From Escherichia phage UP19, in sequence record OX638288: a stretch of 64,000 bases of DNA; one strand, 5' to 3'. A program made the position numbers and the translations under genes. Numbering within the stretch: the stretch's first letter is position 1; every line of letters begins with the position of its first letter. The notes beneath the pieces are model-generated. The model saw only the letters and a program-made list of their open reading frames with translations, was not told where the DNA came from and did no database searches. This document shows, one piece after another, positions 4,451 through 50,076 of this stretch.

Positions 4451-4459
4451 TTAAAAAGT

Positions 4460-4489
4460 GTTTACATACGCCATGGATGGTGTTACTAT
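4460..4489 (+). promoter_or_regulatory. T4-type early promoter (GTTTAC -35, TACTAT -10)
   Basis: GTTTAC ... 18 bp ... TACTAT upstream of ORF at 4519. Confidence 0.5.
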
Positions 4490-4518
4490 CTTCCTATCAA
4501 CTACGAGAGGAAAACAAA

Positions 4519-4779
4519 ATGGATATCAAATTATATTACGCTAAACACAAAGTTACAGGTAAAGTTGTTGCCGCCATGTACGATGCCTCAGGTGAAGATG
4601 TTATTACGGAATTATCCCTTTCTAATTGTAGATTTCTTCGTCCATTGCTAGCATCAAAAAAAGATTTACAAAAACTTATCGACGGTAAATTAGATAATGT
4701 CGATGGTATAGATATCCATTATGAACTCCGCCATGCACTGAATGATGGGTTTATGGAAATAAAAGAGGTGGTGTTTTGA
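4519..4779 (+). CDS. hypothetical protein
   Basis: ATG with GAGAGG ribosome-binding site; in frame with ORF 4477..4779. Confidence 0.5.
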   Translation: MDIKLYYAKHKVTGKVVAAMYDASGEDVITELSLSNCRFLRPLLASKKDLQKLIDGKLDNVDGIDIHYELRHALNDGFMEIKEVVF

Positions 4780-4869
4780 GTAGCAAAATGTGGTGCCTTA
4801 TTTGGATGGCCTGTATCCCTATTATTTGTGTATGTTTTAGTTTATTGTTGTGGAAATTAGCATAAATCA

Positions 4870-4898
4870 GTTTACATCTCCATTGGACATGATACTAT
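4870..4898 (+). promoter_or_regulatory. early promoter inside stem-loop cassette (PeSL-like)
   Basis: GTTTACATCTCCATTGG...TACTATAGACC...AATGGAGATG; inverted repeat flanks the -10. Confidence 0.55.
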
Positions 4899-4924
4899 AG
4901 ACCTATCAACTAATGGAGATGATT

Positions 4925-5035
4925 ATGAAAAACTTACTTAAAGCAATTTGGAACATGTTTGTATTATTGGTCGTATTGAGCATTTTCCCAATCGTTTTTA
5001 TTATTGACCATGTACGTGTATTCTTTAATTTCTGA
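4925..5035 (+). CDS. small hydrophobic peptide (36 aa, predicted single transmembrane helix)
   Basis: MKNLLKAIWNMFVLLVVLSIFPIVFIIDHVRVFFNF; GGAG 7 nt upstream; below ORF-track length cutoff. Confidence 0.45.
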   Translation: MKNLLKAIWNMFVLLVVLSIFPIVFIIDHVRVFFNF

Positions 5036-5284: not shown

Positions 5285-5629
5285 ATGTCTAAAGTATTTT
5301 TTGGTAATGCTAAGATTATGTTCTTTGAGCAACTCAGTCTTAAAGAGGCATTGGCAGCCTTCAATCAAGAACTGGTTACTGGGTTAGATTCAAAAACTAT
5401 GGCAAGCGCGGATTTCGTTTTCGTTCAAGACCCGGATACAGGGTTTTATCGATTCATCAAATTCCGTATGAGCATGGACCCTGACTATCGTAGTGCTTAC
5501 TATGTGAGTTACGAAAATGTTATCAAAGAATTACGTGATACCTATGGACGTGCTTTGAACCCACTGAATAAGGTATATAATGCGTCCTTTTATACGAGCG
5601 GATTTATTTTAGAACAGCTACAAAAATAG
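5285..5629 (+). CDS. hypothetical protein
   Basis: 114 aa ORF with GAGGAAA ribosome-binding site. Confidence 0.5.
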   Translation: MSKVFFGNAKIMFFEQLSLKEALAAFNQELVTGLDSKTMASADFVFVQDPDTGFYRFIKFRMSMDPDYRSAYYVSYENVIKELRDTYGRALNPLNKVYNASFYTSGFILEQLQK

Positions 5630-5657
5630 TTTACAACCTCGAGAATCATGTTATAAT
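5629..5657 (+). promoter_or_regulatory. early promoter in stem-loop cassette upstream of ndd
   Basis: GTTTACAACCTCGAGAATCATGTTATAATGGTTCTCG. Confidence 0.5.
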
Positions 5658-5706
5658 GGTTCTCGTTGACTGGATAACAAAACATTAATCTACTGAGGAA
5701 ATTGAT

Positions 5707-6156
5707 ATGAATACTTATATGACTCGCGGTAACGTTCTGTCTGCTGGTGCTACTACTGTTGCTTATGTTAAGAATGGCGAATACCAAAATGGTAAGCCTT
5801 CTAAAGAAATCTCAGCTCAGCCAGGCTTCTACTTCTTTGTTAAAGGTGAAGCAGATTCTCGTGTCGTAGCCGCTCGCTTTTATGTCGGTAACCAACGTTC
5901 AGCTCAAGGTCTTGATGGTATTGTGGCTAACATCCGTAAGAAACGTTCTCAATCAGCTCGCACTATGGCAGTGAATGGTGTGGTGTATGAAGTTCTTTAT
6001 GTGCCAGCTTCTAAAATGAAACCTCTGACTACAGGCTTTGGTAAAGGTCAAATTGCAATGGCTTTCACTCGCAATCATAGTTCAGACCTTCAGACACTGG
6101 AAGAAATGAACCGTATGTTGGCCGATAACTTCAAATTCGTTCTGCAGGCTTACTAA
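5707..6156 (+). CDS. ndd: Ndd nucleoid disruption protein
   Basis: 149 aa; C-terminus ...[11 protein letters not shown]...[20 protein letters not shown] matches recalled T4 Ndd. Confidence 0.9.
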
Positions 6157-6243
6157 TGAGTAATTTCCATAACGAACATGTGATGCAATGGCACCGTCAT
6201 AATCTGAAATTAACCGGTGTCTTCGGACGCCCTTGAGGAAAAT

Positions 6244-6393
6244 ATGAATATTTTACAAGGTTTTGCTGCGGGTATTTGGACTTATCTAGGTATTTGGACT
6301 ATTACGACGGGTGAAACTTCGGTCATTTCTCAGGCCATTCCACAATTCATATTGGCATTTGTTCTGATTCTACAGGCCTTTACCAAAAAATGA
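6244..6393 (+). CDS. small hydrophobic membrane peptide (49 aa), copy 1 of tandem unit
   Basis: MNILQGFAAGIWTYLGIWTITTGETSVISQAIPQFILAFVLILQAFTKK; hairpin plus GAGGAAA ribosome-binding site. Confidence 0.5.
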   Translation: MNILQGFAAGIWTYLGIWTITTGETSVISQAIPQFILAFVLILQAFTKK

Positions 6394-6538
6394 TTAAGAA
6401 ATCTTGGGTTACTCGGTAGCCCTTTCTTCTTTATTGGTAACACTGTATTACGGAGTAATTCCCATAACGAACATGTGATGCAGTTCTATCGTAACAATCT
6501 TAAAACTAAAGGCGTCTTCGGACGCTAATGAGGAAAAT

Positions 6539-6700
6539 ATGATTATCATAGTTTTTATTGAACTTATTACGGCTATAGTCTGTTCGGTTTGCTTCTTTTT
6601 AGGTGTGTGGACCCCTGGTCAGGTATTCTTAAGTTTTCTGTTTATTGGCTGGGTTCTTTCTACTTTTGTCGGTTTACTTAAGATGATTAAAAATGATTAA
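6539..6700 (+). CDS. small hydrophobic membrane peptide (53 aa), copy 2 of tandem unit
   Basis: MIIIVFIELITAIVCSVCFFLGVWTPGQVFLSFLFIGWVLSTFVGLLKMIKND; same hairpin plus ribosome-binding-site leader as copy 1. Confidence 0.5.
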   Translation: MIIIVFIELITAIVCSVCFFLGVWTPGQVFLSFLFIGWVLSTFVGLLKMIKND

Positions 6701-8217: not shown

Positions 8218-8318
8218 GCCTTGGAGTCGAGTTCTTGCTACTCTGTATCTTTGCTGTTATCCTAGGCCTGGCAACAGGCTTAGCTATAGGTTTAATAGCG
8301 GCCCACTTTAAAAAGTAA
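8214..8318 (+). CDS. small hydrophobic peptide (34 aa)
   Basis: MSLGVEFLLLCIFAVILGLATGLAIGLIAAHFKK; ATGA overlap with gp52 stop; followed by terminator. Confidence 0.4.
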   Translation: MSLGVEFLLLCIFAVILGLATGLAIGLIAAHFKK

Positions 8319-8340
8319 GGAACCTTCGGGTTCCTTTTTG
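8319..8340 (+). terminator. intrinsic terminator
   Basis: GGAACC-TTCG-GGTTCC hairpin followed by TTTTT. Confidence 0.7.
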
Positions 8341-8357: not shown

Positions 8358-8387
8358 TGTTTACATCTGCTTTAAACATGATACTAT
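8358..8387 (+). promoter_or_regulatory. early/middle promoter cassette (GTTTAC -35, MotA-box-like TGCTTTA, TACTAT -10)
   Basis: GTTTACATCTGCTTTAAACATGATACTATAGACC; 48 bp identical to the cassette at 8703. Confidence 0.55.
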
Positions 8388-8435
8388 AGACCTATCAAAT
8401 AAATGAACTGAAACAAACAACCCGGAGATACAAAA

Positions 8436-8663
8436 ATGAAATTTAAAATCGAAAACGAAATCGTTAAAGCTAAAAATGCTCTGACTGCTAACAAACTGGT
8501 TGTAGATGGTATTGAATATGATATATGTGGAGTTCGTGAAGAAAAACCCGGTGTTCTGACTTTCTTCACAATGATTTTTAAATTTAAAGGTGACACAGAA
8601 TTCAAACAGTTTGATTTTGCCACTGAAGACGAAATCGAAGTTCGTAATCTGAACATTAAGTAA
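8436..8663 (+). CDS. hypothetical protein
   Basis: 75 aa ORF downstream of promoter cassette. Confidence 0.5.
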   Translation: MKFKIENEIVKAKNALTANKLVVDGIEYDICGVREEKPGVLTFFTMIFKFKGDTEFKQFDFATEDEIEVRNLNIK

Positions 8664-8702
8664 GTACTTTATTAGAGCTCTTGAAAAAGAGCTCAAAATA
8701 AA

Positions 8703-8732
8703 GTTTACTTCTGCTTTAAACATGATACTATA
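8703..8732 (+). promoter_or_regulatory. early/middle promoter cassette, duplicate of 8358 element, upstream of motA
   Basis: GTTTACTTCTGCTTTAAACATGATACTATAGACC. Confidence 0.55.
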
Positions 8733-8768
8733 GACCTATCAAATAAATGAACTGAAACGGAGATTAAA

Positions 8769-9401
8769 ATGTCTAAAATTACTTATATCATCAAAGCTTC
8801 TGAAGACGTCCTGAATGAAAAAACGGCTTCTATCTTAGTACATATCATCAAACACAACTTCATCACTTCAGGCGAAGTCCGTGAAGCCCTGAGTGAGCAA
8901 TTTAGTGCTGCGGTAGTTAATTCTAACATCGGTGTATTGATTAAGAAAGGATTCATCGAAAAATCCGGTGATGGACTGGTGGCTACAGGTGAAGCAATGG
9001 ACCTAGTTCAAAAAGCTGCTGACCTGTTCGCTTCCGAAAATGCTCCAGAGATGTTGGAAAAACGTAAAACTCGCAGTTCACGCGGTGTTACTCCTGAAAT
9101 GGTGGTACTGGCTGATGAAGTTAAATCTTTGTTAGAAGACCGTATCGAGATTCGTGAAATCGCTGAAAACCGTAGCAATCTTGAAGTTCGATTCGCTAAA
9201 CGTACCAACGGTATTCGTCAAATCGAAGTCCGTCGTGACGGAATGATGCGTATCTTCGGTTATAATATGACCGATAAAGAAAAACAAGTGTTTACTTCTT
9301 TGAATCTTGATGTTAAGATTAAGACTGGTGGTAAGAATACTTATATTGACTTCCAAAACGTATCATCTGAAGTTATCAAAACCGTAACCAACGCAATTTA
9401 A
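8769..9401 (+). CDS. motA: MotA middle-promoter transcription activator
   Basis: 210 aa (T4 MotA 211 aa); N-terminus MSKITYIIKAS...VNSNIGVLIKKG...KSGDGL matches recalled T4 MotA. Confidence 0.9.
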   Translation: MSKITYIIKASEDVLNEKTASILVHIIKHNFITSGEVREALSEQFSAAVVNSNIGVLIKKGFIEKSGDGLVATGEAMDLVQKAADLFASENAPEMLEKRKTRSSRGVTPEMVVLADEVKSLLEDRIEIREIAENRSNLEVRFAKRTNGIRQIEVRRDGMMRIFGYNMTDKEKQVFTSLNLDVKIKTGGKNTYIDFQNVSSEVIKTVTNAI

Positions 9402-10850: not shown

Positions 10851-11153
10851 GCACGATTTCAATAAGGCTTCGGTCCATAAGGACAAGAAGAAAAATTTTA
10901 AAGAGTCCAAGCGTAAGCAGAAACATAAGGGTAAAGGGTATGAGTCATAACTTAGAGAATACCGTAACAGGTATGCGTACTCGTGAGCAGGAGTGCTTTG
11001 AGGAATTCCTAGGAGCTGATTTTAAGTTCCAGGAACCTATTGAAGAAATGTATCAGGAATATGTTAAAAAGAACGAAGAACATGTTTACAATCCATAAGG
11101 ATATGTTATTATAGCCTTATCAGATAATGTCGTACTGAATTGAAGAGAATATT

Positions 11154-11429
11154 ATGACTAAAATTGAAATCGTTTCCGAAATTGCTACTATTGCTTCCAT
11201 TTTGATTAAAACGGATTGTGAAGACATCATGCAACGCCGTGATGAGTTTATTGCCTTTTTGAATGAGTTGGGTATTCGTAATGAACATGGAAAGGAACTT
11301 AACGGCCTATCTTTTAATAAACTCTTTAAGTCTTTAACTGAAGATGAACGTGATACTCTTATTGAGCAATTTAATGAAGGGTATGAAGATATACACCGTT
11401 ATCTAATGATGTATACCTCCAATTTTTAA
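11154..11429 (+). CDS. asiA: AsiA anti-sigma-70 factor
   Basis: 91 aa; ...IASILIK...FIAFLNE...LIEQFNEGYEDIHRYLMMYT matches recalled T4 AsiA. Confidence 0.9.
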   Translation: MTKIEIVSEIATIASILIKTDCEDIMQRRDEFIAFLNELGIRNEHGKELNGLSFNKLFKSLTEDERDTLIEQFNEGYEDIHRYLMMYTSNF

Positions 11430-12121: not shown

Positions 12122-12898
12122 TTATAACCAAGAGCCATAGATAGTGCCTGTCGCGCCCCATGAAGGACTATTACCACTTACAGCAGGCCCTGCAGCTCCA
12201 GGTGGAGACATGGATACACGGCGTCCATAACCCCAGCCGCCTGCAGCGCCTGCGTCACCACCCCAACCGCCACCAAACTGTCCGCCGGCATCCCCGGGAC
12301 CACCAGCCCCAGCATAACTAGCGTTACCGCCAGGTCTATAACTAGTTGCACCACCTAACCCGAATGGTCTGCCACCGCCACCGCCGCAGGTTGAGCCAGA
12401 AGGATAGCTATTTTGCAATGATGTAGCACCGCCACCACCGCCACCACCACAGATAACACCATAGTTCCATATGCGTAAACGCCCACCAATTTCATTATAA
12501 ATTGCTGTACCGCCTTGTTGGCCTCCACCGCCATTGGTTGCGCCATTACCACCGCGTCCCCACATATGAACCCCGCCATGAATATTCAAAGTAACATATT
12601 CGTTAGGGATGTCACTATTCATAAAGAACAATGGAAGGTCTCTAGTATAAGATACTAAATCGCCGGTGATATTAAACACAATAGGTGCAGCGCCGGCTTC
12701 AAAACAACGGTCTCTAAACCAATACCCATTGAAGTTGTGGTCTGCTCCAAGTGTGTGAATTATTTCAACAGACCGACCTACCATATTACTCATCCAAAAC
12801 GGAGCACCCATTCTCAATCGTTGGGCAGCGCCGCCCATCCAATTTTGTCCCGTATTAGCTAATGCAGAAGTTCCTATCCACGGTCCTGCTACTGCCAT
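12122..12898 (-). CDS. 38: gp38 long tail fibre adhesin, T2-type with glycine-rich motifs
   Basis: poly-Gly segments ([22 protein letters not shown]); N-terminus MAVAGPWIG like T2 gp38; start moved to ATG with GGAGG ribosome-binding site (ORF track 12122..12910 starts at TTG). Confidence 0.85.
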
Positions 12899-12930
12899 AT
12901 AAACCTCCAAGGGGCCGGAAGCCCCTCTTA

Positions 12931-15900
12931 TTATTTTAACAATGATTTAACTAAAGCTTTAAGTTCTTCAATCTCTGATTTCAATTCTGCTATTTCGGCA
13001 GTGTGCTCATTGATTGCAGCTGTATTTAAACCAATTACACCGTTATAGTTCAAACGAAGTAAAGCTTCACCATCAGGGTCACCTTCAACCAATTCAGGTA
13101 AAATAGCTTGAACTTCTTGAGCAATTAAACCGGCGTTAGGTTCCCATTTCTGATTACCTTCTTCATCTAGGCCTCGCTTCTGCATATAAGTGTAACCGTT
13201 AATTTTGGAAAGCTTCTCAGAAGCATTTTCAAATTTAACAAGGTCTTTTTTAACGCGAATATCAGAACGGACATAAACATCACGGACAAACGTTGAATAG
13301 TTATCATTTGCCTGAACGAGATGCCCATGAGAAACGATAGCTCTTCCAACTTCCGACCAAAAAGCCCCGGATGAATCCCAAAGCCCAGGATGAGATTGAT
13401 AGCCTGACCCCCAGCTTGCAATATGCACACCATTGGCAACCATGTTAATTCGGCCATCACCGCCATGGGTTAAACCAGTATCATTATCACCGATGGCGAT
13501 AGATGCTCCACCCCATATAGGAATTGTACCTACGCCTAGGTTTACGCTGGCACGTAAACCAGCAGGTGCAACAAAATCACCATTAGACTGAAATACAAAT
13601 ATTGCATTAGGATGGCTTGCATCGCCGCTTTCAGCAGAACCCACACGAATAACAGCAGAACCCCAGGTAGCCGCTCCACCCAATCTAATAATACCGAAGT
13701 CTGCTTTAGTAGAATATCCGTCAGTAACTAGAGTGCTTTTTCCTTTGATAATTGGCATATAACTATCTTTAGGAACGGATTCACCAAAGTCAACGAAATA
13801 AGGAGCTTCTGTTTGCCATTGATTTCCGTAACCATGACCTTGAGTATTAACCCATGCTCGACCGTTAACATACATGCGATAATAATTCATCTGCATTGCT
13901 AAGCCAGTACCGGAAAGTTCTACGTTGAAAGCCCCATCATTAGTGATGTACATACCCGAGTTGGTAGCATAACTGTAAAGAGCTATCCCGTTATCATCGC
14001 CACCTTTACCGACATACCAGTTGCTGGTACCATTTACATCGGAACGGATATGCGAGCTATTACCTGTGGTTGTTTTTAATACTAATGCATCACCAGGAGC
14101 TTCGATAGTCAGCTTACCTGTCATTGTGTCCCCGCCTTTACCAACACGAGTACTCACCGCTGCATCAAGGTTAGTAGCACCACTATACTTGTTCCAAATA
14201 GAACCTGCAATATTACCATCAGTATTCATGAAAGCTGTACCGGCATATAAGCGGTTCAGAGCTATGAAGTTACCATCTTTGGTAAAGCGCCAATATTTTA
14301 ATCCTGTAACATCGCCATCACCATGCAAATCACCTTGAGCAACAATTCGGTATTCGCTCGTAGCGCGGTCCATACCTTGAGTAACAGTTACATTCGAATC
14401 GATATTTTTCTGCTTAGTAATAGGATAAAATGCTTGGGTTGCAGCATCGAGTGCTTGATACAACGGAGCTTTAGTCGTATTCTGGTTGGCATAAGATGCG
14501 CCGTTACTATTAGGGAATTCCAATGCACCATTACCCCTAAAATAAACCTGGTCTGCTTCTAAGTTAGGGATTTTAACCCGGCCCGTGTCTAACATAATAC
14601 TTAATGGGCGTAATGGGCCTAATCCGCCACTTTCGCCGGCATTAACATTGGTTGGGATAATATGCAGCTGGTCTTCTGAATTTCGGAAAATAACACCATA
14701 TTTATCATTCCAAATACGAAGACCACTAGCAGCGCGGACTTTAATTTCATTGGAAACATACAGATTGCGTTTTAAGGATGTATCTTGACTGACAGACAAT
14801 CCTTCGACGATGTTCATCGTGCCGTTTAAATAAGATTCGACTTTACCTGCTGTGGTTCGTTGAATATAGTGCATCCAGCCTGTAGCATCAGATGTTTCCA
14901 ATACGTTTTTACGAGAACCACCTACCGTATTAAAAGTGTCACCCCAACCTTTGAGCTCTATATTATCAACTGAACTATATCCTGAGGTACTTCCTTTAAA
15001 AAGCACAGTGGAAGCGTTACCACGACCGTCAATATTAACCGAACCACCACGGACTTCAACGTTACCAGGAGTAACCAACAACCCACCATCAGTGTTAACG
15101 TTTGTTACACCTTTACCACGGAAATAATGGTGGTATTTACCACTCTGATGATAACCTAAAAGAGTCTGTCCATCACCAAAGCCGTTTTTATCATTAGTAG
15201 TATTAACAATAACTAATGGATAGTTTTGGGTTGTAGGGAGAATTAAATCAGAACCGTTGGTTGAATAACCCGCAACTAACTGTTTAAGGCTTGTAACTTC
15301 AGTAGGAGTTGTAAGTAAAGTATAAGCCCCATTATTAACTGTATGGAACTGGCCGTCTTGTCTCCATTTCAAACCTGTGTTATTGTCGCCAAGTGCGATA
15401 GCAGACGGGCCTAATGTTGAGTATCCTGAGCTATCCCCAGGTAGGCCAACGGAAAGAGAATTTGATGTTTTGACATCTCCATCTGCGTTAAATGACCAAA
15501 GATACTTAGCTGTTCCGGCTGTAGAAATAGAATGCCATGAAATACCATTTACATTATTAAGTTCACGATACCTAATTCCATCGACAGCGTGTCTACTTAT
15601 TCTAAGATAGTTAATAGATGTTGCGCTTGAACTTGCAGGATTATTATTTGCCAATGAAGATATATCATAATCAAGAGCTGATTTATTACCAGTATCAACT
15701 GTATTAGTATAAATTACTGGAGATTTCACCGATGTTCCGCTGGAAATAGACGGAGCATAAAATAAACCGTCGCCGTTGAATGCAAAAATATTAGATGTTG
15801 AATTAGTATAATCCTGGACACGAACGTTCAAGATTTGCTTGGTATTTCCTGGGCGTGATTGTGAATAAATTATGCCTCTTTCACGCGCATCAGCCAAATC

Positions 15901-16272
15901 CTGGAATCGAACGTGGGCGGTTCCTGCACCCCGTACAAGAACTTCACCATTATCTGTCATTAGGCGAGATTTTGCTGTGATATCACCATTTGCTGTTATA
16001 TTTCCGGATGCTACATAACTACCTGTTTGGGTAAAGGTACCCTTTAGGGCGTAATCGCCGGTTTGATTGTAATTACCGTTATGAATAACATTACCATCGA
16101 TATTACCACCTTTGGCAAAACCAAGGTCGATGATGGCGCCGGTGTCATCTTTAGTAAAAAGTAAGCGGTCTTTCAGGTTGATAGCCAGCTCACCTTCAGC
16201 AAGAACTGTTGGCGCCGGACGAACGCCGGCAACCTTACTTCTTTTAAATTGTATTTGTTTTAAAGTAGCCAT
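12931..16272 (-). CDS. 37: gp37 long tail fibre distal subunit with C-terminal intramolecular chaperone-like domain
   Basis: 1113 aa; position between gp36 and gp38; C-terminal ~110 aa resemble endosialidase/S74-type chaperone domain (...[15 protein letters not shown]...). Confidence 0.85.
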
Positions 16273-22077: not shown

Positions 22078-22106
22078 GTTTACTTCTTCCAGGGCCATGA
22101 TATAAT
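22078..22106 (+). promoter_or_regulatory. early promoter for rnh
   Basis: GTTTAC ... TATAAT. Confidence 0.5.
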
Positions 22107-22137
22107 AACCTTCTACACTAATTGGACAGAGGTTCAT

Positions 22138-24298: not shown

Positions 24299-24299
24299 T

Positions 24300-24388
24300 G
24301 CTTCATATCAAATGTGTTAATATACTAACTCAATCTGTTAAAAACTGTTAATAAAATACAACTGCTAAAATCTGCTAAGGTAAATAAT
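24300..24388 (+). promoter_or_regulatory. gene 32 mRNA leader / putative translational operator
   Basis: AT-rich leader with repeated CTGTTAA/CTGCTAA motifs before the ribosome-binding site; by analogy to T4 gene 32 autoregulation. Confidence 0.4.
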
Positions 24389-26029: not shown

Positions 26030-26036
26030 AAAAGTT

Positions 26037-34113: not shown

Positions 34114-34141
34114 TTTACATCTCCTCATGATGTGTTAGTAT
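34113..34141 (+). promoter_or_regulatory. early promoter in stem-loop cassette (PeSL-like)
   Basis: GTTTACATCTCCTCATGATG...TAGTATAGACC...AATGAGGAG. Confidence 0.5.
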
Positions 34142-34171
34142 AGACCTACCAACTAATGAGGAGAAAACAAA

Positions 34172-34672
34172 ATGAATATGCAAATGATTACTAACGAAAT
34201 GGTTGTTAAAGCTTTTGGTGATTCTACTGACGGTATCCAAGTTTTTAAAGGTTCTCGTGCGGTAGGTTACCTAACCGATCTTCGTGTTACTTTAGCCAAA
34301 AATGCTAAAAAGAAAATCAAGCAAAAAGAATATTCTACCCGTTATGCAGAAGAAAAGCGTGAAGCCATGCCTGAAGCTGTTAACTCTATGGTTGAGTTTC
34401 TCCAAAACAACCTTTCTAAGTATGATGCTGAGGTATTCATTAATATCAGTCAGCCTAATGTTAAAATCGCAGGAATCACATTCTATTTGATTTGCGACCC
34501 ATTAAGTGACAAGTTTAATCGCCTTGGCATTTCCAGCCCTTACCATACTGCTGAAGAATTGTGTGTGATGTTTGAAACATACAAAATTCAGTGTGAAAAT
34601 CCTAAAACGGTTCTTATCAACTCCCTGTCACGTGATGACATCATCGAGATTATTACCAAATGTCTAAATTAA
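34172..34672 (+). CDS. hypothetical protein (possible Alc by size and position only)
   Basis: 166 aa (T4 Alc 167 aa); no sequence-level confirmation. Confidence 0.4.
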   Translation: MNMQMITNEMVVKAFGDSTDGIQVFKGSRAVGYLTDLRVTLAKNAKKKIKQKEYSTRYAEEKREAMPEAVNSMVEFLQNNLSKYDAEVFINISQPNVKIAGITFYLICDPLSDKFNRLGISSPYHTAEELCVMFETYKIQCENPKTVLINSLSRDDIIEIITKCLN

Positions 34673-35300: not shown

Positions 35301-35404
35301 TTGAAGCCTGTATCGATGGGTGGGACGTTTTTAAATTCGGTGCTGCATGTTTTTGCTTTGGTATCGTGTTCAGCCTGTGTATGAATGGTATTTTTGGGAA
35401 GTAG
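35297..35404 (+). CDS. small hydrophobic peptide (35 aa)
   Basis: MIEACIDGWDVFKFGAACFCFGIVFSLCMNGIFGK; strong AAGAGGAGAA ribosome-binding site; in frame with ORF track 35210..35404. Confidence 0.5.
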   Translation: MIEACIDGWDVFKFGAACFCFGIVFSLCMNGIFGK

Positions 35405-35433
35405 TTTACAAACTCTTGGGAGCAGAGTATAAT
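35404..35433 (+). promoter_or_regulatory. early promoter (GTTTAC / TATAAT) in hairpin
   Basis: GTTTACAAACTCTTGGGAGCAGAGTATAATGCTCC. Confidence 0.5.
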
Positions 35434-35467
35434 GCTCCTACGGATTATAAAAATTGAGGAAATTATT

Positions 35468-35946
35468 ATGACATTACGTGATAACAGTTTTGTGGCTAAG
35501 CCTGAATACATTTCAAGTATTAAATCTCCTGTATTACAAAAGCTCCTTAAACTAGGGTCCTGTGCAAGCACTCCTATTGAAAAGAAGGCAACTTTCGATT
35601 TTGCTTGGGCTATTGTGGACGGTATTGATGTAGTAAGACAGGTAACTTTTTATGCTCCAGGGTCTATTGAGCCTTCACAGATTATTAATTTGAACGGAAG
35701 TAATTATATTACCATCCAACAGTGGTATCGTATGATGCGACCTGTTTGGGAATACCCTGAATTCATTGAAGAGTACAATGAAAAAGAACGTATTCGTGAG
35801 CTAGTAAAAAGTTTTGAATACGCAGCTAAACGCCACGGCCAGATGCAGCAAGCTGTGGCTTTAGGTGATGTTGATGAAAAATCAGCATATGAAAGTGGTA
35901 AACTTCTGAAAACCTGTCGCGAAGAACTTTATAAGGAGCTTGGTGT

Positions 35947-37862: not shown

Positions 37863-37892
37863 GTTTACATCATGGTAGGACTGTGGTATAGT
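37863..37892 (+). promoter_or_regulatory. early promoter in stem-loop cassette (PeSL-like)
   Basis: GTTTACATCATGGTAGGACTGTGGTATAGTAGTCCTACC. Confidence 0.5.
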
Positions 37893-37922
37893 AGTCCTAC
37901 CGAAACAAATGAGGAAATCGAA

Positions 37923-38474
37923 ATGGGTAAGTTCTTTGAAGAGCGTAAGTTTTATAAGTTCATTAGCGAATACACTAAAAACAAATTCACTAATAACGGT
38001 GCTTATGCCCTCAATACAGCTTTTGCCAAGTATGTAGGTATGAATCCGTTTGAAGTTGAAATTGATTACCATAATGGGTGTGAACGTGTAAGCCGAATTC
38101 GTGTATATGACGAGATGATGTTTGTCGACCCTAGCAAAATCACCGGTAATCCTGATGATGCAAATACTGTTCTTTTTAATTCAACAGGCCTTTTTGGCCA
38201 TGAATTCGAATACTTCATTGAAGTAGTACGTCCACTGGCCTCGGTGAGTATTCCTGAAAATGGACCTAAACCAGTAAAAGCCACTGCTGATTGGAAAGTG
38301 CTTATTGTTAAAAATGGTAAGATTGAAGTCCATTCTCGCCATAACACAAAGGAACAAGCCGACCGTCAAGCCGAAGAGCTTTTGACCAGTTCGTTCCAAC
38401 AAGTGTGTTATATTGTTAAGGGCGACGTTACCCAAGCTACCACTACCAAACAACTTAAGTTGGAGACCATCTAA
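37923..38474 (+). CDS. hypothetical protein
   Basis: ATG after AATGAGGAAA ribosome-binding site; in frame with ORF 37812..38474. Confidence 0.5.
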   Translation: MGKFFEERKFYKFISEYTKNKFTNNGAYALNTAFAKYVGMNPFEVEIDYHNGCERVSRIRVYDEMMFVDPSKITGNPDDANTVLFNSTGLFGHEFEYFIEVVRPLASVSIPENGPKPVKATADWKVLIVKNGKIEVHSRHNTKEQADRQAEELLTSSFQQVCYIVKGDVTQATTTKQLKLETI

Positions 38475-40312: not shown

Positions 40313-40561
40313 ATGAACAAACATCTGAATCACGCTCTTGAACTGCAACGCAACGCTTGGAACAACGGTCACGAAAACTACGGCGCATCTATTGATGTTG
40401 AAGCCGAAGCACTGGAAATCCTGCGTTATTTCAAACATCTTAATCCGGCTCAGGCTACTCTGGCTGCTGAACTGGAAGCAAAAGATGAACTGAAATATGC
40501 TAAGCCTTTGGCTTCAGCAGCTCGTAAAGCAGTACGTCATTTTATTATTACCCTGAAGTAA
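40313..40561 (+). CDS. rIII: rIII lysis-inhibition accessory protein
   Basis: 82 aa from MNKH...; ALELQRNAW...LNPAQ.TLAAELEAKDELKYAKPLAS.AR.AVRHFII.LK matches recalled T4 rIII; ORF track starts at GTG 40259. Confidence 0.8.
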   Translation: MNKHLNHALELQRNAWNNGHENYGASIDVEAEALEILRYFKHLNPAQATLAAELEAKDELKYAKPLASAARKAVRHFIITLK

Positions 40562-40913
40562 AATCGAGGAGCCGTCGAACTGTCTGATTAATGATTTGCG
40601 AATCATTATAGTTTTAAGACCCCAGCAGTTTTACGGTGTACCTCTTGAATGTATTTTATAGCGGCAAGTGCATGCTACCCCGAGGTGATGGCCAATCGGG
40701 AGTACGCCTCAAGGCCTATATATCCATCAGTATATATCTTATCCTCGAGAAATCGAACCCGGAACCTTTAAGCTAACGGTGTGCAACAGATAAGAGCTAT
40801 GATGACGAGGTTTACGGTTATCCTGTCGTTAAATATCTAAAACCTATGTTCCCCTTGAGGGCTTGCGCAGGCAATGTCAATAAGTCCTGCATCCTAATTT
40901 AAGAGATTTAAAA

Positions 40914-41075
40914 ATGGCTAAGAAAGAAGTTAAAGTAGTTGACGGAACCTCTAAACGCGCTGGTTACAAGCGTGCGTCTAACAAGCGTATCAATCAGGTA
41001 GTTGATAAGCTTCAAGCTCGTGCTCGTGCAGTATTGCGTGCAGATGCTGCTTGCTTCGGTAAAGTTATTGCATAA
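40914..41075 (+). CDS. small basic protein (53 aa), hypothetical
   Basis: MAKKEVKVVDGTSKRAGYKRASNKRINQVVDKLQARARAVLRADAACFGKVIA; weak ribosome-binding site; followed by terminator. Confidence 0.3.
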   Translation: MAKKEVKVVDGTSKRAGYKRASNKRINQVVDKLQARARAVLRADAACFGKVIA

Positions 41076-41080
41076 GTTAT

Positions 41081-41106
41081 GGGACTCTTCGGAGTCCCAT
41101 TTTTGT
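41081..41106 (+). terminator. intrinsic terminator
   Basis: GGGACTC-TTCG-GAGTCCC followed by T-rich run. Confidence 0.7.
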
Positions 41107-41129: not shown

Positions 41130-41158
41130 GTATACATCTCCGGTAGGCATGATACTAT
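41130..41158 (+). promoter_or_regulatory. early promoter cassette with shared leader
   Basis: GTATACATCTCCGGTAGGCATGATACTATAGAC then leader CCAAATAATACGAAAACAAACTGGAGAATAAAATG. Confidence 0.45.
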
Positions 41159-41199
41159 AGACATGTACCAAATAATACGAAAACAAACTGGAGAATAAA

Positions 41200-41532
41200 A
41201 TGAAAACTGTAAACCTGAATGCATCTGTTAAAGCTAAATGTTTCAACGGTGAATATCAAGAAACCATGTGGGTCCTGACTGCAGTTGAAGGTGATATCAT
41301 CGAAGTTGAAACAACTGAAGGTATGGGTACTGATTTCACATTTACCATCGAGCTTCACAACTTCTTTACAGGTTGGATTTATGAACTGAAAACTGTAATT
41401 ACTGGTCGTATCGAAGAAAACAAAATTGGTGAATTCTATTACGTTAATGCCCGTACACGTGCTGAACGTCTGATTGCTCAGATGAAAAAAGTTGGTAAAC
41501 TTGATATGAAAAATTGGAATGTTGTGAAATAA
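41200..41532 (+). CDS. hypothetical protein
   Basis: 110 aa ORF. Confidence 0.5.
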   Translation: MKTVNLNASVKAKCFNGEYQETMWVLTAVEGDIIEVETTEGMGTDFTFTIELHNFFTGWIYELKTVITGRIEENKIGEFYYVNARTRAERLIAQMKKVGKLDMKNWNVVK

Positions 41533-41535
41533 ATG

Positions 41536-41565
41536 TTTTACTTTGGTACAGGTTGTGTTATTATA
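41536..41565 (+). promoter_or_regulatory. early promoter cassette with leader identical to the 41165..41202 leader
   Basis: GTTTTACTTTGGTACAGGTTGTGTTATTATAGACCTGTACC. Confidence 0.45.
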
Positions 41566-41605
41566 GACCTGTACCAAATAATACGAAAACAAACTGGAGA
41601 ATAAA

Positions 41606-41971
41606 ATGAACTACATCAACTTCGAACGTAAATATGTTTCTAACGGTAACGCTGGTTCTTCTGAAGTTATTTGTCTGTGGAAACACAACAACGGCACAGT
41701 GTGCGAAATCGAACAGTGCATGACTCCTAACTACGTTTATATGCGCTTTGAAAATGGTATCACGGTTTCAATCACTATGGAAGGTTCTACTTTTAAAATC
41801 GCTTTGGATGATGATTTCCGTCAACGTGATTTAGGCACCCATCCTTGCTGGAACGGTGATAATCGTAAGCTTCTGGTTAAAACCTGGATTCGTCACATCC
41901 TGAGCAACCGTGCTAAACCTGAACACCTGGAAGCAATCTTTGTTGTAGTTCTGAATGAATTTGATATCTAA
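41606..41971 (+). CDS. hypothetical protein
   Basis: 121 aa ORF. Confidence 0.5.
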   Translation: MNYINFERKYVSNGNAGSSEVICLWKHNNGTVCEIEQCMTPNYVYMRFENGITVSITMEGSTFKIALDDDFRQRDLGTHPCWNGDNRKLLVKTWIRHILSNRAKPEHLEAIFVVVLNEFDI

Positions 41972-42012
41972 TCTTAAAAATGGAGGCTTCGGCCTCCTTT
42001 GAGGAAAATATT

Positions 42013-42300
42013 ATGTTTATGACCACTTATTTCGATACTCGTAAAAATTTCTGTGAAGTTGTTTTCTCTAAGGCAGGTAAAGATGTTCCTGCTGACAAAC
42101 AGCCTACTCGTGAATCCATTAAGGCCTATGCTGATGTGGTTTGTCCAGTAGAATTCCGTACAGTCAATGGTCGTGACACCCTAGCAATCACTAAGCTCAA
42201 CCGCGATATTAACATCGACCCAAGTGTCGCCCGCGAAGTCAATACTTCTGACATCTACGGCGGTAATGTTAAATCACATGGATTTCAGATGAGGTTCTAA
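42013..42300 (+). CDS. hypothetical protein
   Basis: ATG after hairpin GGAGGC-TTCG-GCCTCC plus GAGGAAA ribosome-binding site; ORF track 41980. Confidence 0.5.
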   Translation: MFMTTYFDTRKNFCEVVFSKAGKDVPADKQPTRESIKAYADVVCPVEFRTVNGRDTLAITKLNRDINIDPSVAREVNTSDIYGGNVKSHGFQMRF

Positions 42301-45804: not shown

Positions 45805-47892
45805 ATGACCGAACAATTGAATGAGGTGTTTGAGTCCGAAGGCACCCTGCCTACTGTAAACTTAAACCCAAAACTTAAAGTACCCCAGATTTGGAAGATT
45901 GGCGACGCCGAATCCCAATTAGTTGCTCGTATGGTATCTTATGCCTCTGAAGGCGATGCTATTAAACAGGTTAAATTAGGTGATAAATATGCCCACGTTA
46001 TTTTGATGAGTTTATCAGCTAAAGGTACTCCAGCCGAACTTAAAGGTGGATTAGGCCTTACTCCTATTGATGCTATTAATACCATTTTCGACGTAGTATT
46101 CGAACAAGTTAAAAAGCTTCGTATGGATGCTGTGATGTTCCGTTTTCCAACCAAGAAAATGAAAGGACAAGGACCTATTGTCCAACGGATTATCCAACGT
46201 TTGGTAGCACAGAAAACCGGTGGACGTTTTAAAGTAGTTCCAGCCATGTACCAATTTACCGGTAAACATACTTATATCCTAGTAGTGCGTAAACAAGCTG
46301 ATATCGAAGATATCAAAGGTATGCCTGGAATTAATGCCGAATTATATACTAAGGTAGATTCTGATGTTGGTGAAGTTTATATTTCTAAAAAAGAAGGCGC
46401 TCAGGTTACTAAAGAAACCGCTATTGCCGGCAGTATTGCTAAAGTTGAAGAACGTCGCACTGATAAAATGGTTATAACCAAGACTAAGATTTCTCGTCGT
46501 GCGATTGCGGCAAGCCAGTCATTAGAAGCAGACCGTAATGAAGGTGAATTATTTCAGAAATATGAACAAACTGCCAATGAGTTCAGTGCGCCTGCTACGG
46601 CGGAATTAATTCCACAAGCAGTCGAAGTTGAATTATCATTATCATCCGAAACAGCTAAGGATAAGCTGGCTACGGCTATTGATTTTAAAATTTATAATAC
46701 TATGGATGATTCATTTAAATTTGCGGATGAAGTTTCTTACGGTGATAAAATTAACTCTTCTTTAGAAAAATTTGTCAAAAAAATTAAAAATGAAAAAACC
46801 ACGTCAGTTAAAGCTTTAGCCGCCTTTGTTGAAGCTGCTAATGAAATCGCAGAATCTATTAAAAGTGATTGGTTTGAAGATTATAGAAAAGACAATTTCC
46901 ATTTGGAAAAAGAGATATTGAATGAAAACAGTGAAAGAGTATGGAAACAACGTAAGTCTTCATTCTTGTCTAAGATAATGTATACATACGCTATAGAATC
47001 AACTAGAGAAATTCTTAATATAACAACATCTCGAGACCCTAAACAATATACACTTGCAGAAAAACGAGCTATCAGAGAATACGCCTCTTCAGCTTATATT
47101 GATATTAACAATGTCCTTCTTGGCCGTTATAAACCGGGCTTTTATGAAGTTTTGGACGAAAGCGAAGTTAAACGTGCTATTGATGGAATGGATTCTGCCT
47201 TTAAAAATGGTGACCGTTTACCTGAAGGAATAATGGTTTATAGAGCACAATCTTTGCGCGCGCCTATCTACGAAGCATTAGTTAAAAATAAGGTATTCTA
47301 TTTTAGAAACTATGTTTCAACCTCATTGGCCCCAATCATTTTTGGTGGCTTTAAAGAGAATGCGGCTATTGGTCTTGCTTCCGATGATGTTCGAAAAGAA
47401 TTAAACATTGATAATAATGACGAAGGCGTTACCATCTCGGCTAGTCAAGTGCGTACACATATGTATGCGCCGGATCAAATCCGTGTTGATGTTGGCTGGG
47501 CTATTAGTGGCGCTCATAAGGTTAACGTGATTTATCCTGGCCAATTAAGCATGCATGCCAACGAAAAGGAAATAATTTTACCACGCGGGCTACTTGTAAA
47601 AATAGATAAAATCGTGGATGCATCAGCCAATACTGGTTCTGGGGCGGTGTCTAACAATAAATTTATTCAAGCTGAAGTTATGACATCAGATGAGCTTCAA
47701 GAATCTGTAGTGTATGATGGTGACGTACTAATGGAAACCGGCGAGTTGGTTGTGTATCAAGATGATTTCGATACTTCCGAAAGCCCTGTATCTTTTGATT
47801 CATTTGTTAAATCTACACGGTTTGATGTACTGCCTCTTTTGGCTTCATGCATAGACCTCTATGGCATCCCAGAAAAATTCATCCAAGGGTAA
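45805..47892 (+). CDS. alt: Alt-like ADP-ribosyltransferase (head-packaged), paralog 1
   Basis: 695 aa (T4 Alt 682 aa); ...ELYTKVDSDVGEVYISKK.GAQVTKE.AIAGSIA... and ...FYFRNYVSTSLAPIIFGG... match recalled T4 Alt; R / S-T-S / E-x-E catalytic motif pattern. Confidence 0.85.
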   Translation: MTEQLNEVFESEGTLPTVNLNPKLKVPQIWKIGDAESQLVARMVSYASEGDAIKQVKLGDKYAHVILMSLSAKGTPAELKGGLGLTPIDAINTIFDVVFEQVKKLRMDAVMFRFPTKKMKGQGPIVQRIIQRLVAQKTGGRFKVVPAMYQFTGKHTYILVVRKQADIEDIKGMPGINAELYTKVDSDVGEVYISKKEGAQVTKETAIAGSIAKVEERRTDKMVITKTKISRRAIAASQSLEADRNEGELFQKYEQTANEFSAPATAELIPQAVEVELSLSSETAKDKLATAIDFKIYNTMDDSFKFADEVSYGDKINSSLEKFVKKIKNEKTTSVKALAAFVEAANEIAESIKSDWFEDYRKDNFHLEKEILNENSERVWKQRKSSFLSKIMYTYAIESTREILNITTSRDPKQYTLAEKRAIREYASSAYIDINNVLLGRYKPGFYEVLDESEVKRAIDGMDSAFKNGDRLPEGIMVYRAQSLRAPIYEALVKNKVFYFRNYVSTSLAPIIFGGFKENAAIGLASDDVRKELNIDNNDEGVTISASQVRTHMYAPDQIRVDVGWAISGAHKVNVIYPGQLSMHANEKEIILPRGLLVKIDKIVDASANTGSGAVSNNKFIQAEVMTSDELQESVVYDGDVLMETGELVVYQDDFDTSESPVSFDSFVKSTRFDVLPLLASCIDLYGIPEKFIQG

Positions 47893-47895
47893 ATA

Positions 47896-50019
47896 ATGGA
47901 AAATTTAAACGAGGTTTTTGATAGTGATTCCGCTAAAAACTATCCAGTAACAAATCTTAAACCAGGTTCCGGTATTCCACAGATTTTCTCTATCCAAGCA
48001 CCAGGTAATGATAATCTGGTTGCTCGTATGGTATCTTATGCGTCTCAAGGAGACGCTATTAAAATGGTTAAGCCTGGCGACAAATACGTTCATGTTATTT
48101 TGATGAGTTTGTCTAGCAAGGGTGCTCCGGCTGAACTCAAAGGTGGCCTTGGTTCTGACCCACTTGGTACACTGAATACTATTTTCGATACTGTATACGA
48201 ACAAGTAAACAAACTTAAAATGGATGCAGTTTTGTTCCGTTTCCCTACCAAGAAAATGAAAGGTAAGGGTCCTACCGTTCAGCGTGTATTAGCTCGTTTG
48301 GTGATGGCACGTACCGGTGGTAAGTTTAAAGTTGTCGATGATATGTTCCAGTTTAGTGGTAAACATACATACGTTCTTTTAGTACGTCGTGGTTCTAATA
48401 TCGAAGATATCAAGGGTATGCCTGAAATTGATGCCGATCTTTATACCAAGGTTGAGTCTAAAGTTGGCGAAGTTTATGTTTCTAAGAAAACAGGCCAGGC
48501 CGTAAGTAAGGTCGAAGCCGTAGCGGCATCTATCGCCCAGGTTGAAGAAAAACGTACCGATAAGGCTGTCATCTCTCGTACTAAGATTTCCCGTCGTATG
48601 GCTGCAGCAGCGCAGTATTCTACTTCCGAACCTGAAACTTTATCCCCTAAAGAATTGCAGGTTTATAATGAGTTTGAAGCTTCTGTACCTGTTCATTCGG
48701 CTGAAGGTCCTGAGAACGAAGGTATTGAACAGATTAGCCAGAACTTTAAAAAAGGTGCTATTACTAAAATGCGTCAGGCCTCTCAGTTTAAATCTAAGAG
48801 TGAGGACCTTGCCAACTTTAGATACACCATTGCTCTCACGCACGCTTTAATGACTGATAGTAAATTTAAACTAAATTATGCTAATAGAGATAAACAAGGG
48901 TTTGAAATTTACTCTAATAATATGGCATTTTTTAATACAGAAGTCGATAGACTTTTAAGTGGCCTTTCTCAAATCAATACTACCAATAGTCTGGATATTA
49001 TTAAGAGAATTGTTAATAACCTGAGCGCCCGTTTTCAGGGATCTCCTTCAGAGAAAGCATCCCGAATTGCTTTCGCTATGGAAGCCGTTTATAAACTGAT
49101 TAACGATTCTATTGGCGATGCGTATGCTTATTCAGGTGAGCTCATTAAACCTAAGGGCTTGACTAAAGACGAAAGCAATGCTATTATTGAATATTGCGCA
49201 GCTGAATATGCTCCTATGAACTTATTCCTTTTAGGTAAACCTGAATCCGAAAACAATACAACGGCTATTAAATTGATTAAGGATTTAGACTCAGCATTTA
49301 CTAAGGGTATTAAACTCCCTAAGGGTACTATTTTGTATCGTGGTCAGGATTTGCCATACAAAATTCTGCGTCATAATATCGATAACAAAACATTTTACTT
49401 TAAGAACTTTGTGTCAGCCTCATTAAAGCCTAACATCTTTGGTGAATTCGGTAAAAATTATATGGCCCTCGACAACCAAGCCGTTTTTGTTGGTGGTGAA
49501 GGTTCTTTATCCTCCGCTGATGAGTTGTTTAAATTGGCTAGTGGTAGTTCATCTGATGTGGGTGAAGTCGATGACGAAGAGGTAGAATGGGAAGAAGACG
49601 AGTTTGGTAATCCAATTGCACCTGAAGGCCCTGCAGACAGGATTGCTGAAATCGGTATGGTTATTCGAGGTGCTGAAGCAGTTAAAGTTATCGCTCCTGG
49701 CGACCTTACAGAATATGCTGAAGAAGCAGAAATTATCCTTCCGCGTGGATTATTGATGAAGGTTGATAAAGTAGCGGCTTTTGCTATGAATGATAGGGTA
49801 TCTCACAAATACCTTATGGAAGCTACAGTGACGTCTCCTTCAGAACTCAGTGAATCCGTTTACGATGGCGACCATCTGATGGAAACTGGCGAAGTTAAAT
49901 TGATGAATGGGTTTAAAGAATTCCTAGTTTCAGAATCTGTTTCAGAAAGTAATGAGGCTATGGAAATCCTTGCTGCATCTTTGGACATCTCTTCTTTATC
50001 AAATAAATTCAAAATGTAG
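47896..50019 (+). CDS. Alt-like ADP-ribosyltransferase, paralog 2 (divergent)
   Basis: 707 aa; N-terminal ~230 aa similar to paralog 1; C-terminal ...FYFKNFVSASLKPNIFGEF... and ...EEAEIILPRG...; divergent middle. Confidence 0.8.
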   Translation: MENLNEVFDSDSAKNYPVTNLKPGSGIPQIFSIQAPGNDNLVARMVSYASQGDAIKMVKPGDKYVHVILMSLSSKGAPAELKGGLGSDPLGTLNTIFDTVYEQVNKLKMDAVLFRFPTKKMKGKGPTVQRVLARLVMARTGGKFKVVDDMFQFSGKHTYVLLVRRGSNIEDIKGMPEIDADLYTKVESKVGEVYVSKKTGQAVSKVEAVAASIAQVEEKRTDKAVISRTKISRRMAAAAQYSTSEPETLSPKELQVYNEFEASVPVHSAEGPENEGIEQISQNFKKGAITKMRQASQFKSKSEDLANFRYTIALTHALMTDSKFKLNYANRDKQGFEIYSNNMAFFNTEVDRLLSGLSQINTTNSLDIIKRIVNNLSARFQGSPSEKASRIAFAMEAVYKLINDSIGDAYAYSGELIKPKGLTKDESNAIIEYCAAEYAPMNLFLLGKPESENNTTAIKLIKDLDSAFTKGIKLPKGTILYRGQDLPYKILRHNIDNKTFYFKNFVSASLKPNIFGEFGKNYMALDNQAVFVGGEGSLSSADELFKLASGSSSDVGEVDDEEVEWEEDEFGNPIAPEGPADRIAEIGMVIRGAEAVKVIAPGDLTEYAEEAEIILPRGLLMKVDKVAAFAMNDRVSHKYLMEATVTSPSELSESVYDGDHLMETGEVKLMNGFKEFLVSESVSESNEAMEILAASLDISSLSNKFKM

Positions 50020-50048
50020 TTTACAACACCACAAGGATGTGGTACTAT
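50019..50048 (+). promoter_or_regulatory. early-type promoter in hairpin
   Basis: GTTTACAACACCACAAGGATGTGGTACTATTA. Confidence 0.45.
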
Positions 50049-50076
50049 TACCTTACACAAACATGAGGAGAACATT

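Follow-up and report, generated by a model that had tools for sequence, protein, structure and literature searches.

Predicted early promoter cassettes of the promoter early stem-loop type, with associated hairpins, in Escherichia phage UP19

Promoter early stem-loops (PeSLs) are known from phages RB49 and phi1, where promoter activity, attenuator activity and mini-circle formation have been described (PMC2839356). The papers on these elements already list stem-loops between or over the promoter boxes (RB49/phi1, PMC2839356) and the promoter TTTACW-N17-TAYWAT (T4/PST, PMC4122927), and they mention PeSL-like sequences in phage JS98. Here we analyzed a stretch of 64,000 nt from Escherichia phage UP19 (record OX638288; the whole stretch is called the window), in which an initial annotation had listed 15 early promoters embedded in stem-loop cassettes. 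We found that the feature is real and that it is a known kind of element, here in a phage group for which no catalogue of it existed; the concept in general has been published before. The cassettes are likely to be sigma-70 early promoters of a T4-type phage, set in compact intergenic PeSL-type units and associated with hairpins, which would insulate read-through RNA and offer homology for recombination. Overall, the original observation was confirmed in part and its interpretation partly supported.

Megablast searches of phage genomes with two parts of the window gave 92-97% DNA identity and full synteny with Escherichia phages MN04, JS10, IME08 and Bp7; dozens of public Dhakavirus genomes matched over >=80% of the query. 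By these matches, the source is a T4-type phage of the JS98/JS10 group (Straboviridae, Tevenvirinae, genus Dhakavirus). Early transcription runs along the + strand, on which all cassettes and hairpins described below lie. As relatives we compared five Dhakavirus genomes (MN04, JS10, IME08, Bp7 and AnYang); IME341 was left out.

A search for the strict pattern GTTTAC-N16-19-TAYTAT returned nine matches, all on the + strand, which is the early-gene strand, compared with 0.17 ± 0.49 in shuffled sequence. A relaxed scan recovered 15 of the 15 listed sites and added two, at 11084 (upstream of asiA) and 62805. The listed coordinates proved accurate, each lying within 1 nt of a GTTTAC-like -35 box followed by a 17-18 nt spacer, a TAnnnT -10 box, a Shine-Dalgarno (SD) sequence and an ATG. 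One-base deviations from the strict -10 box occur at 5629, 22078 and 35404 (TATAAT), 34113 (TAGTAT) and 37863 (TATAGT), while the -35 box deviates at 41130 (GTATAC) and 41536 (TTTTAC, with TATTAT). All 17 cassettes have sigma-70-type boxes within the 17 ± 1 nt spacing of PeSLs (17-18 nt, with a TAnnnT -10), and all 17 lead into an SD and the ATG of a + strand gene. The -10 box is TGn-extended in 15 of the 17. AT makes up 0.74 of the upstream sequence but 0.61 of the whole, and an A-tract lies at about -44..-38, in agreement with the AT-rich tract of PeSLs, and a conserved discriminator and leader, ATAGACCTATCAAC, follows the -10 box. The cassettes are intergenic and located in the ndd/denB, motA, frd.x, pseT.x, cd.x and 30.x regions.

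The published T4 early promoter (Pe) carries GTTTAC at -36..-31 (PMC1524935) and belongs to the 'UP/-35/TGn/-10' type (PMC2988021). The cassettes have GTTTAC at the same position, the TGn motif and a -10 box with T-12, A-11 and T-7, and their consensus equals both this promoter (PMC1524935) and that of the T4/PST PeSLs (PMC4122927). All 17 sites are predicted T4-type, sigma-70-dependent early promoters. Like the T4 early or 'uber' promoters (PMC2988021, PMC1524935), they combine GTTTAC, TGn, TAnnnT and an upstream A-tract, and they stand upstream of the orthologous early genes motA, asiA, rnh, alc, cd.3/cd.2, 30.8, 30.7 and alt.-3. We found no difference in the promoter elements, except that the discriminator/leader ATAGACCTATCAAC, specific to the group, is more conserved.

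The initial reading of the cassettes as PeSL-type elements is supported, since every feature of PeSLs that can be seen at the sequence level is present (PMC2839356, PMC4122927). With the RB49/phi1 elements (Arbiol et al. 2010, PMC2839356) they share the AT-rich tract, sigma-70-type -35 and -10 boxes, a stem-loop mostly between the boxes or over the -10, the SD and start codon, the clustering among small early open reading frames (ORFs) and, for some of the cassettes, a location at indel or replacement junctions between close relatives. They differ in that the -35 box is GTTTAC (T4 type) instead of TTGACA, the stems are not polyG/polyC, and three cassettes with spacer/SD pairing fall outside the five listed subclasses. 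The T4/PST PeSLs (Comeau et al. 2014, PMC4122927) share the consensus TTTACW-N17-TAYWAT, the ndd, 30.x and frd.x regions, and 'half' cassettes near indels, of which a remnant in the contig IMGVR_UViG_2974741249_000001 is an example. However, the stem-loop is drawn there as immediately preceding the promoter, an arrangement seen in 5 of the 17 window cassettes; most window hairpins are embedded, and embedded ones are found in T4 too.

We folded the region from the -35 box to the ATG as RNA and compared it with dinucleotide shuffles (significance at p<=0.05). The fold was significant at 10 of the 17 cassettes, with a mean z of -1.9, and not significant at 8359, 8703, 11084, 22078, 25347, 50019 and 62805, so the folding expected by the initial annotation was found in most cassettes but not in these seven, which include the duplicated pair 8359/8703. 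Spacers paired with their own downstream region at -10.6 kcal/mol, compared with -7.5 ± 0.55 kcal/mol for the regions of other cassettes (permutation p<5e-5), and the cassettes were more structured than the 63 nt preceding 46 other early gene starts (z -1.73 vs -0.57, p=0.006). Internal mismatches in the strong stems were G.T about eight times and A.C once, a bias that fits + strand RNA and is more informative than the asymmetry of strand folding. In PeSL terms, ten cassettes hold a significant embedded hairpin, five have a strong hairpin <=30 nt upstream, and 11084 and 22078 are weak or atypical. The inverted repeat proposed to join the spacer to the ribosome-binding site in every cassette was borne out only in part, as folding and as own-spacer pairing; its 3' arm is the SD only at 4870, 34113 and 41130, and in most cassettes it is the -10/+1 region. 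Instead of one uniform hairpin architecture, there are at least four geometries, and in five cassettes a hairpin or terminator upstream takes the place of an embedded hairpin. A common protein operator was rejected because the arm sequences differ between cassettes.

In the three cassettes of Class B, the spacer pairs with the GGAG SD over 10 bp (4870), 9 bp (34113) and 8 bp (41130); perfect spacer/SD complements of at least 8 bp, present in these 3 of the 17 cassettes, have by a rough estimate a chance expectation of about 0.05. The ndd.4 cassette (4870-4927, ATG 4925; fold z -5.5) pairs its spacer arm CATCTCCATT (4875-4884) with AATGGAGATG (4912-4921), which contains the GGAG SD, and the predicted +1 at about 4905 falls between the arms. 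These arms are invariant in four relatives, while the loop and the -35 box vary. In the alc cassette (34113-34174, ATG 34172; z -4.3), the SD is itself the 3' arm, ATGAGGAGA (34156-34164), and its partner in the spacer is TCTCCTCAT (34120-34128). In the 30.8 cassette (41130-41202, ATG 41200; z -1.9), TCTCCGGT (41137-41144) pairs with the SD arm ACTGGAGA (41187-41194), and a G.U pair becomes A-U in MN04 and JS10. All three have the predicted geometry of a hairpin that sequesters the ribosome-binding site, with the SD in the 3' arm and the predicted start between the arms. Such hairpins with an internal promoter are known from T4 e, soc, 49 and I-TevI and from Aeh1 mobE (PMC3014915), and here too the 5' arm precedes the internal start, so that the SD-masking helix would be confined to long transcripts. 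The difference lies in the internal promoter, which in those cases is late, with a hairpin that delays translation, whereas in the window it is a predicted early one. A limited literature search found no description of this spacer/SD variant with an early internal promoter.

In the six cassettes of Class A, the spacer pairs with the -10/+1 region. The ndd cassette (5629-5709, ATG 5707; z -1.8) forms a hairpin between CGAGAATCAT (5640-5649) and ATGGTTCTCG (5656-5665), whose loop holds most of the -10 box. Two cassettes precede frd-like ORFs. The first (26037-26097, frd.3-like ORF, ATG 26095; z -3.3) pairs GGTCTATGGT (26046-26055) with ACTATAGACC (26062-26071), placing the -10 box within the 3' arm, and the second (26325-26385, frd.1-like ORF, ATG 26383; z -4.0) pairs GGCTATGGTA (26335-26344) with TACTATAGCC (26349-26358), a stem that is longer in MN04 (TAAGGCTATGGTA/TACTATAGCCTTA). 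Upstream of pseT (35404-35470, ATG 35468; z -2.6), TGGGAGC (35417-35423) and GCTCCTA (35434-35440) enclose the -10 box. Between cd.3 and the next ORF (37863-37925, ATG 37923; z -2.3), at the position of T4 Pe133295, the hairpin of TGGTAGGACT (37873-37882) and AGTCCTACCG (37893-37902) holds the -10 box in its loop, and IME08 and AnYang have a different hairpin there, TCACC...GGTGA. The 30.7 cassette (41536-41608, ATG 41606; z -3.7) has a hairpin of 12 bp around the -10 box, formed by TTTGGTACAGGT (41542-41553) and ACCTGTACCAAA (41567-41578).

Two cassettes hold a hairpin wholly within the spacer, of the CACCA-AGGA-TGGTG type (Class C). In the cassette of a small ORF in the denB-ndd region (4460-4521, -35 at 4460-4465, -10 at 4484-4489, ATG 4519; z -1.8), ACGCCA (4468-4473) pairs with TGGTGT (4478-4483), and JS10 has ACACCA, turning a G.U into an A-U. 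In the alt.-3 cassette (50019-50079, ATG 50077; z -1.4, p 0.09), ACCACA (50028-50033) pairs with TGTGGT (50038-50043) around an AGGA loop, and Bp7 has CGCCA-AGGA-TGGTG where the window has CCACA-AGGA-TGTGG. Both also belong to Class B', in which the discriminator pairs weakly with the SD (4490-4494 with 4509-4513 at 4460). The third member is the early promoter of rnh (22078-22140, ATG 22138), which lies in a divergent gap adjoining the late gene 34, with no co-directional upstream gene and no spacer hairpin; its pairing of AACCTTCT (22107-22114) with AGAGGTT (22128-22134) is perfect in IME08 and AnYang. The asiA cassette (11084-11156, ATG 11154; z -0.1), one of the two absent from the initial list, has only a weak inverted repeat, ATAAGG/CCTTAT.

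Cassettes 8359, 8703, 25347 and 62805 have no embedded hairpin but a strong hairpin immediately upstream. After gene 52, a UUCG-loop intrinsic terminator at 8317-8336 (AAGGAACC-TTCG-GGTTCCTT and a T-run) ends 22 nt before the promoter of the cassette at 8359-8438 (z +0.85; ORF between gene 52 and motA, ATG 8436). The motA cassette (8703-8771, ATG 8769), a duplicate of the 8359 cassette, is preceded at 8675-8694 by the hairpin GAGCTCTT-GAAA-AAGAGCTC, which has no T-run. A second UUCG-loop terminator, after gene 32 (25311-25330), stands 16 nt before the cassette of a frd.2-like ORF (25347-25407, ATG 25405). Beyond the range of the initial list, an early-type promoter (-35 at 62805, -10 TAAGAT at 62829, ATG 62864; whole unit 62765-62866) follows the hairpin GGGCC-GCAA-GGCCC with a T-run at 62765-62778. 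A third UUCG-loop terminator (41079-41100), 29 nt before the 41130 promoter, is the single overlap among the 17 cassettes; the others with embedded hairpins have nothing comparable upstream (hypergeometric p ~0.06). The upstream UUCG hairpins occupy the same place as the intercistronic UUCG-tetraloop hairpins and terminators of T4, after the stop codon of the preceding gene and before the promoter or SD, and are distributed in a complementary way to the embedded hairpins. A hairpin thus appears to be a regular partner of these promoters, handling transcripts from upstream, and it appears to be embedded in the free positions of the promoter where intergenic space is short, as at 34113, where the rnlA stop codon lies over the -35 box.

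Could the embedded hairpins be terminators or attenuators that stop polymerase arriving from upstream, the role given in the original PeSL papers? We regard this as possible but doubtful. The stem-loop of RB49 PeSL211/210 lowered lacZ expression as much as rrnB T1 did (PMC2839356), true terminators occupy the equivalent place in cassettes that lack an embedded hairpin, and in some phages the alc promoter carries a G4/C4 stem with a T-run over its -35 box. However, the lacZ assay cannot separate termination from effects on translation or RNA stability, and not one of the embedded window hairpins has a U-tract. The UUCG terminators at 8317-8336, 25311-25330 and 41079-41100 have GC-rich stems, UUCG loops and T-runs, all of which the embedded hairpins lack, their stems being AU-rich by comparison. 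On this ground, we rejected them as intrinsic terminators.

An insulating role at the RNA level would work as follows. Host RNA polymerase is expected to start about 7 nt after the -10 box and to produce a leader of 20-45 nt. This predicted +1 lies inside or after the embedded hairpins, so they could form only in RNA coming from upstream or in single-stranded DNA. Because the 5' arm uses promoter positions free of sequence constraint (spacer and discriminator) upstream of the start, the hairpin would be missing from the promoter's own transcript and form only in read-through RNA, where it would insulate the downstream cistron. In three cassettes it would do so by occluding the GGAG SD; in the remaining ones it is probably a 3'-end, attenuation or stability structure, in the role that ordinary UUCG-loop terminators play upstream of the hairpin-less cassettes. 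More tentatively, the embedded hairpins may be terminator substitutes without a U-tract that make expression depend on where the RNA starts, and ndd.4, alc and 30.8, with their anti-SD spacers, may be translated only from their own early promoter and be confined to the immediate-early period. This early-only translation would invert the late-only logic known from T4 e, soc and 49.

Conservation bears on whether the pairing matters. In the five Dhakavirus genomes, the orthologous cassettes keep their arms while loops and -35 boxes vary, as at 4870, and one-sided substitutions preserve pairing, as in the changes from G.U to A-U at 4460 and 41130. We located the T4 promoters by pattern, the T4 RefSeq record having no promoter features except a note on Pe133295. 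The T4 promoters of ndd.4 (CTGTTCTTCC/GGAGGAACAG, 10 bp), alc (CCTCGTGTTGTGT/ACATAACATGAGG) and 30.8 (TCCTTTGT/ACAAAGGA) all have a spacer/SD pair with arms that differ from those in the window, and the T4 30.7 promoter has the same stem as the window, GGTACAGG/CCTGTACC. T4 and Dhakavirus share the spacer/SD pairing but not the arm sequences, which suggests selection on structure. Across IMG/VR contigs, every alc promoter carries a hairpin, though of varying type: spacer/SD, spacer-internal, an GGTAGGACT stem (the type at 37863 in the window), or a G4/C4 stem with a T-run over the -35 box. The GGTAGGACT cassette itself precedes three different genes, depending on the phage. In IMGVR_UViG_2974741249_000001 (5730-5800), a complete cassette of the GGTAGGACT type directly follows a half cassette, GATACTATAGACCTATCAACT, with the -10 box and leader but no SD or gene; this half cassette resembles the degraded '1/2 PeSL' described near indels.

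It is unlikely that the sites are plain early promoters whose inverted repeats are functionless by-products of compact, recombining intergenic DNA. Such an origin would agree with the 7 of 17 cassettes lacking a significant fold, with stems that are short (5-12 bp) and variable in position, with the lack of significant covariation among orthologs, and with the decay of the weak 11084 repeat in relatives. It does not account for the preference of spacers for their own downstream region, the excess of long spacer/SD complements, the T4 promoters that keep the type of pairing with other sequences, the distribution complementary to upstream terminators, or mismatches biased to G.U.

The exact duplicates proved real and slightly longer than first given. 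Positions 8366-8414 equal 8710-8758 (49 nt instead of about 48), and 41164-41204 equal 41570-41610 (41 nt instead of about 38). The second repeat spans the whole predicted 5' untranslated region of 30.8 and 30.7, and the genes that follow its two copies differ, their proteins being unrelated. T4 has two early promoters, those of alc and alt.-3 (about 136336 and 123093 in the T4 record), that are near-identical over about 50 nt, so exact promoter duplicates at distant loci are not special to the window phage.

The MotA-box-like TGCTTTA, first reported in several cassettes and taken as a sign of dual early/middle control, occurs in two cassettes, 8359 (8368-8374) and 8703. MotA-dependent middle promoters have the box, (a/t)(a/t)(a/t)TGCTTtA, 11-13 bp from the -10 box and centred at -30 (PMC1524935, PMC2988021). 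In 8359 and 8703 it lies 7 bp before the -10 box, with no TAnnnT 11-13 bp downstream, and the proposed dual control fails on this spacing. Canonical MotA-type promoters, (a/t)TGCTT(t/c)A-N12-TAnnnT, stand elsewhere on the + strand, at 2273 (upstream of rIIB), 24296 (gene 32), 39784 (gene 31) and 63073 (uvsY region), the last three serving as N12-spaced controls. Therefore, although the box core matches in the spacers of 8359, 8703 and the IME08 and Bp7 versions of 26037, activation of these cassettes by MotA/AsiA as dual early/middle promoters is very improbable.

The cassettes were further proposed to mediate gene shuffling. Pairwise alignments of the early regions with the five relatives gave about 21 indel or replacement events; cassettes contain an end of eight of these, and both ends of three. 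IME08, Bp7 and AnYang have another ORF in place of the one between 8399 and 8657-8722, and their homology to the window breaks off at 8399, inside the 8359 cassette. AnYang has a deletion of 650 bp (25408-26059) from cassette 25347 to cassette 26037 that leaves one chimeric cassette, and junctions of AnYang and IME08 fall at 25408-25420. IME08 has a different 30.8 between 41206 and 41537, the latter its junction in the 30.7 cassette; 30.8 and 30.7 are missing from JS10 and AnYang, where the left junction falls at 41162-41176. The junctions at the 30.8 cassette are 41162, 41176 and 41206. Downstream of 35404, JS10, Bp7 and AnYang have a different ORF, joined at the ATG, and Bp7 has a junction at 50016. 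Spacer types have also been exchanged between loci: IME08 and Bp7 have the 8359-type spacer, with TGCTTTA, at 26037, and AnYang has the GGTCTAT type at motA (8703). The cassettes share 40-65 nt of near-identical sequence and would thus provide homology for recombination that deletes, swaps or inserts small early ORFs.

Cassettes make up about 4% of the sequence but about 28% of the junction ends (10 of about 36). A link to shuffling is suggested by these deletions and replacements with junctions inside cassettes among five relatives, and the cassette-flanked ORFs at 8399, 25408-26059 and 41162-41537 are indeed replaced or missing; the enrichment holds against the whole sequence but not against gene boundaries. 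A role of the inverted repeats at the DNA level, in which cruciforms or single-strand hairpins would draw recombination or nicking to the cassettes and so make them mobile, is also quite unlikely. It would explain junctions inside cassettes, but the bias of G.T over A.C fits one-strand RNA and not DNA cruciforms, and junctions are found as well at plain SD motifs and in cassettes that have no embedded repeat (8399, 25408), as simple homology predicts.

Several results weigh against insulated PeSL-type units that supply recombination homology. About 21% of gene boundaries (16 of about 75) carry a cassette, so that, with gene boundaries as the null, 10 of about 36 junction ends do not stand out clearly, and other junctions lie at homing-endonuclease insertions, an intron, the SD motif TGAGGAAAATAT.ATG and UUCG-hairpin/SD repeats, that is, also at plain SD motifs and UUCG hairpins. 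Promoter activity and read-through are themselves predictions. No embedded hairpin in the window combines a GC-rich stem with a U-tract, 11084 has no convincing hairpin and loses its weak repeat in relatives, and only 3 of the 17 cassettes clearly mask the SD, so one mechanism does not cover them all. The negative association between embedded and upstream hairpins reaches only p~0.06, the asymmetry of folding between + and - strands is weak (p=0.07; 71 unique cassettes from 7 genomes), and formal covariation in the GGTAGGACT cassette family was not significant, 9 of its 11 pairs being invariant and hence uninformative. With these points counted, we still favor insulation of read-through RNA by hairpin-associated early promoters.

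The present work gives the JS98/JS10 group, whose phages are used in therapy work, a catalogue of PeSL-type cassettes, and it adds that embedded hairpins and upstream terminators alternate at early promoters and that T4 itself has spacer/SD pairings at orthologous promoters. If read-through insulation is true, it would explain how dense early genes, each with a very strong promoter, remain separate expression units, and how whole promoter-gene modules can be swapped without disturbing their neighbors. A limited literature search found no genome-wide map of 5'/3' ends for T4.

The gene order of the window begins with rIIB, denB, ndd, 52, motA, arn.x and asiA, followed by the tail-fibre genes 38-34 on the - strand, and continues with rnh, 33, 59, 32, frd, td, nrdA/B, denA, rnlA, alc, pseT, cd, 31, rIII, 30.9-30.1, 30, two alt copies and alt.-3. 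The distal tail-fibre/adhesin region (12466-16076, - strand, genes 37/38) is the part most divergent from all five relatives, with blocks of 600-4000 bp replaced. The two tandem alt (ADP-ribosyltransferase) paralogues at 45805-47892 and 47896-50019 are 74-83% identical in parts; the copies number three in AnYang, and in Bp7 the second one has diverged strongly. At 23645-23652, 24296-24340 and 32022-32025, AnYang and Bp7 have homing-endonuclease genes or, in Bp7, an nrdB intron that contains an endonuclease, insertions that are all absent from the window. An Rfam scan of the whole window gave no family at the gathering score, including no match for 40561-40914, a stretch of about 350 nt without an ORF between rIII and 30.9. 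This stretch is variable among relatives (junctions 40561/40660|40798) and contains a weak promoter-like site at 40629.

A repeated module of a UUCG-tetraloop hairpin and, directly after it, the SD motif TGAGGAAAATAT.ATG, without a promoter, occurs at 6213-6248, 6508-6543 and 41979-42014. Two copies flank a tandem duplication of about 295 bp (6151-6251/6446-6546 and 6399-6459/6703-6763) that IME08 and Bp7 do not have; the deletion of 30.8-30.7 in JS10 and AnYang has its right junction at the third copy.

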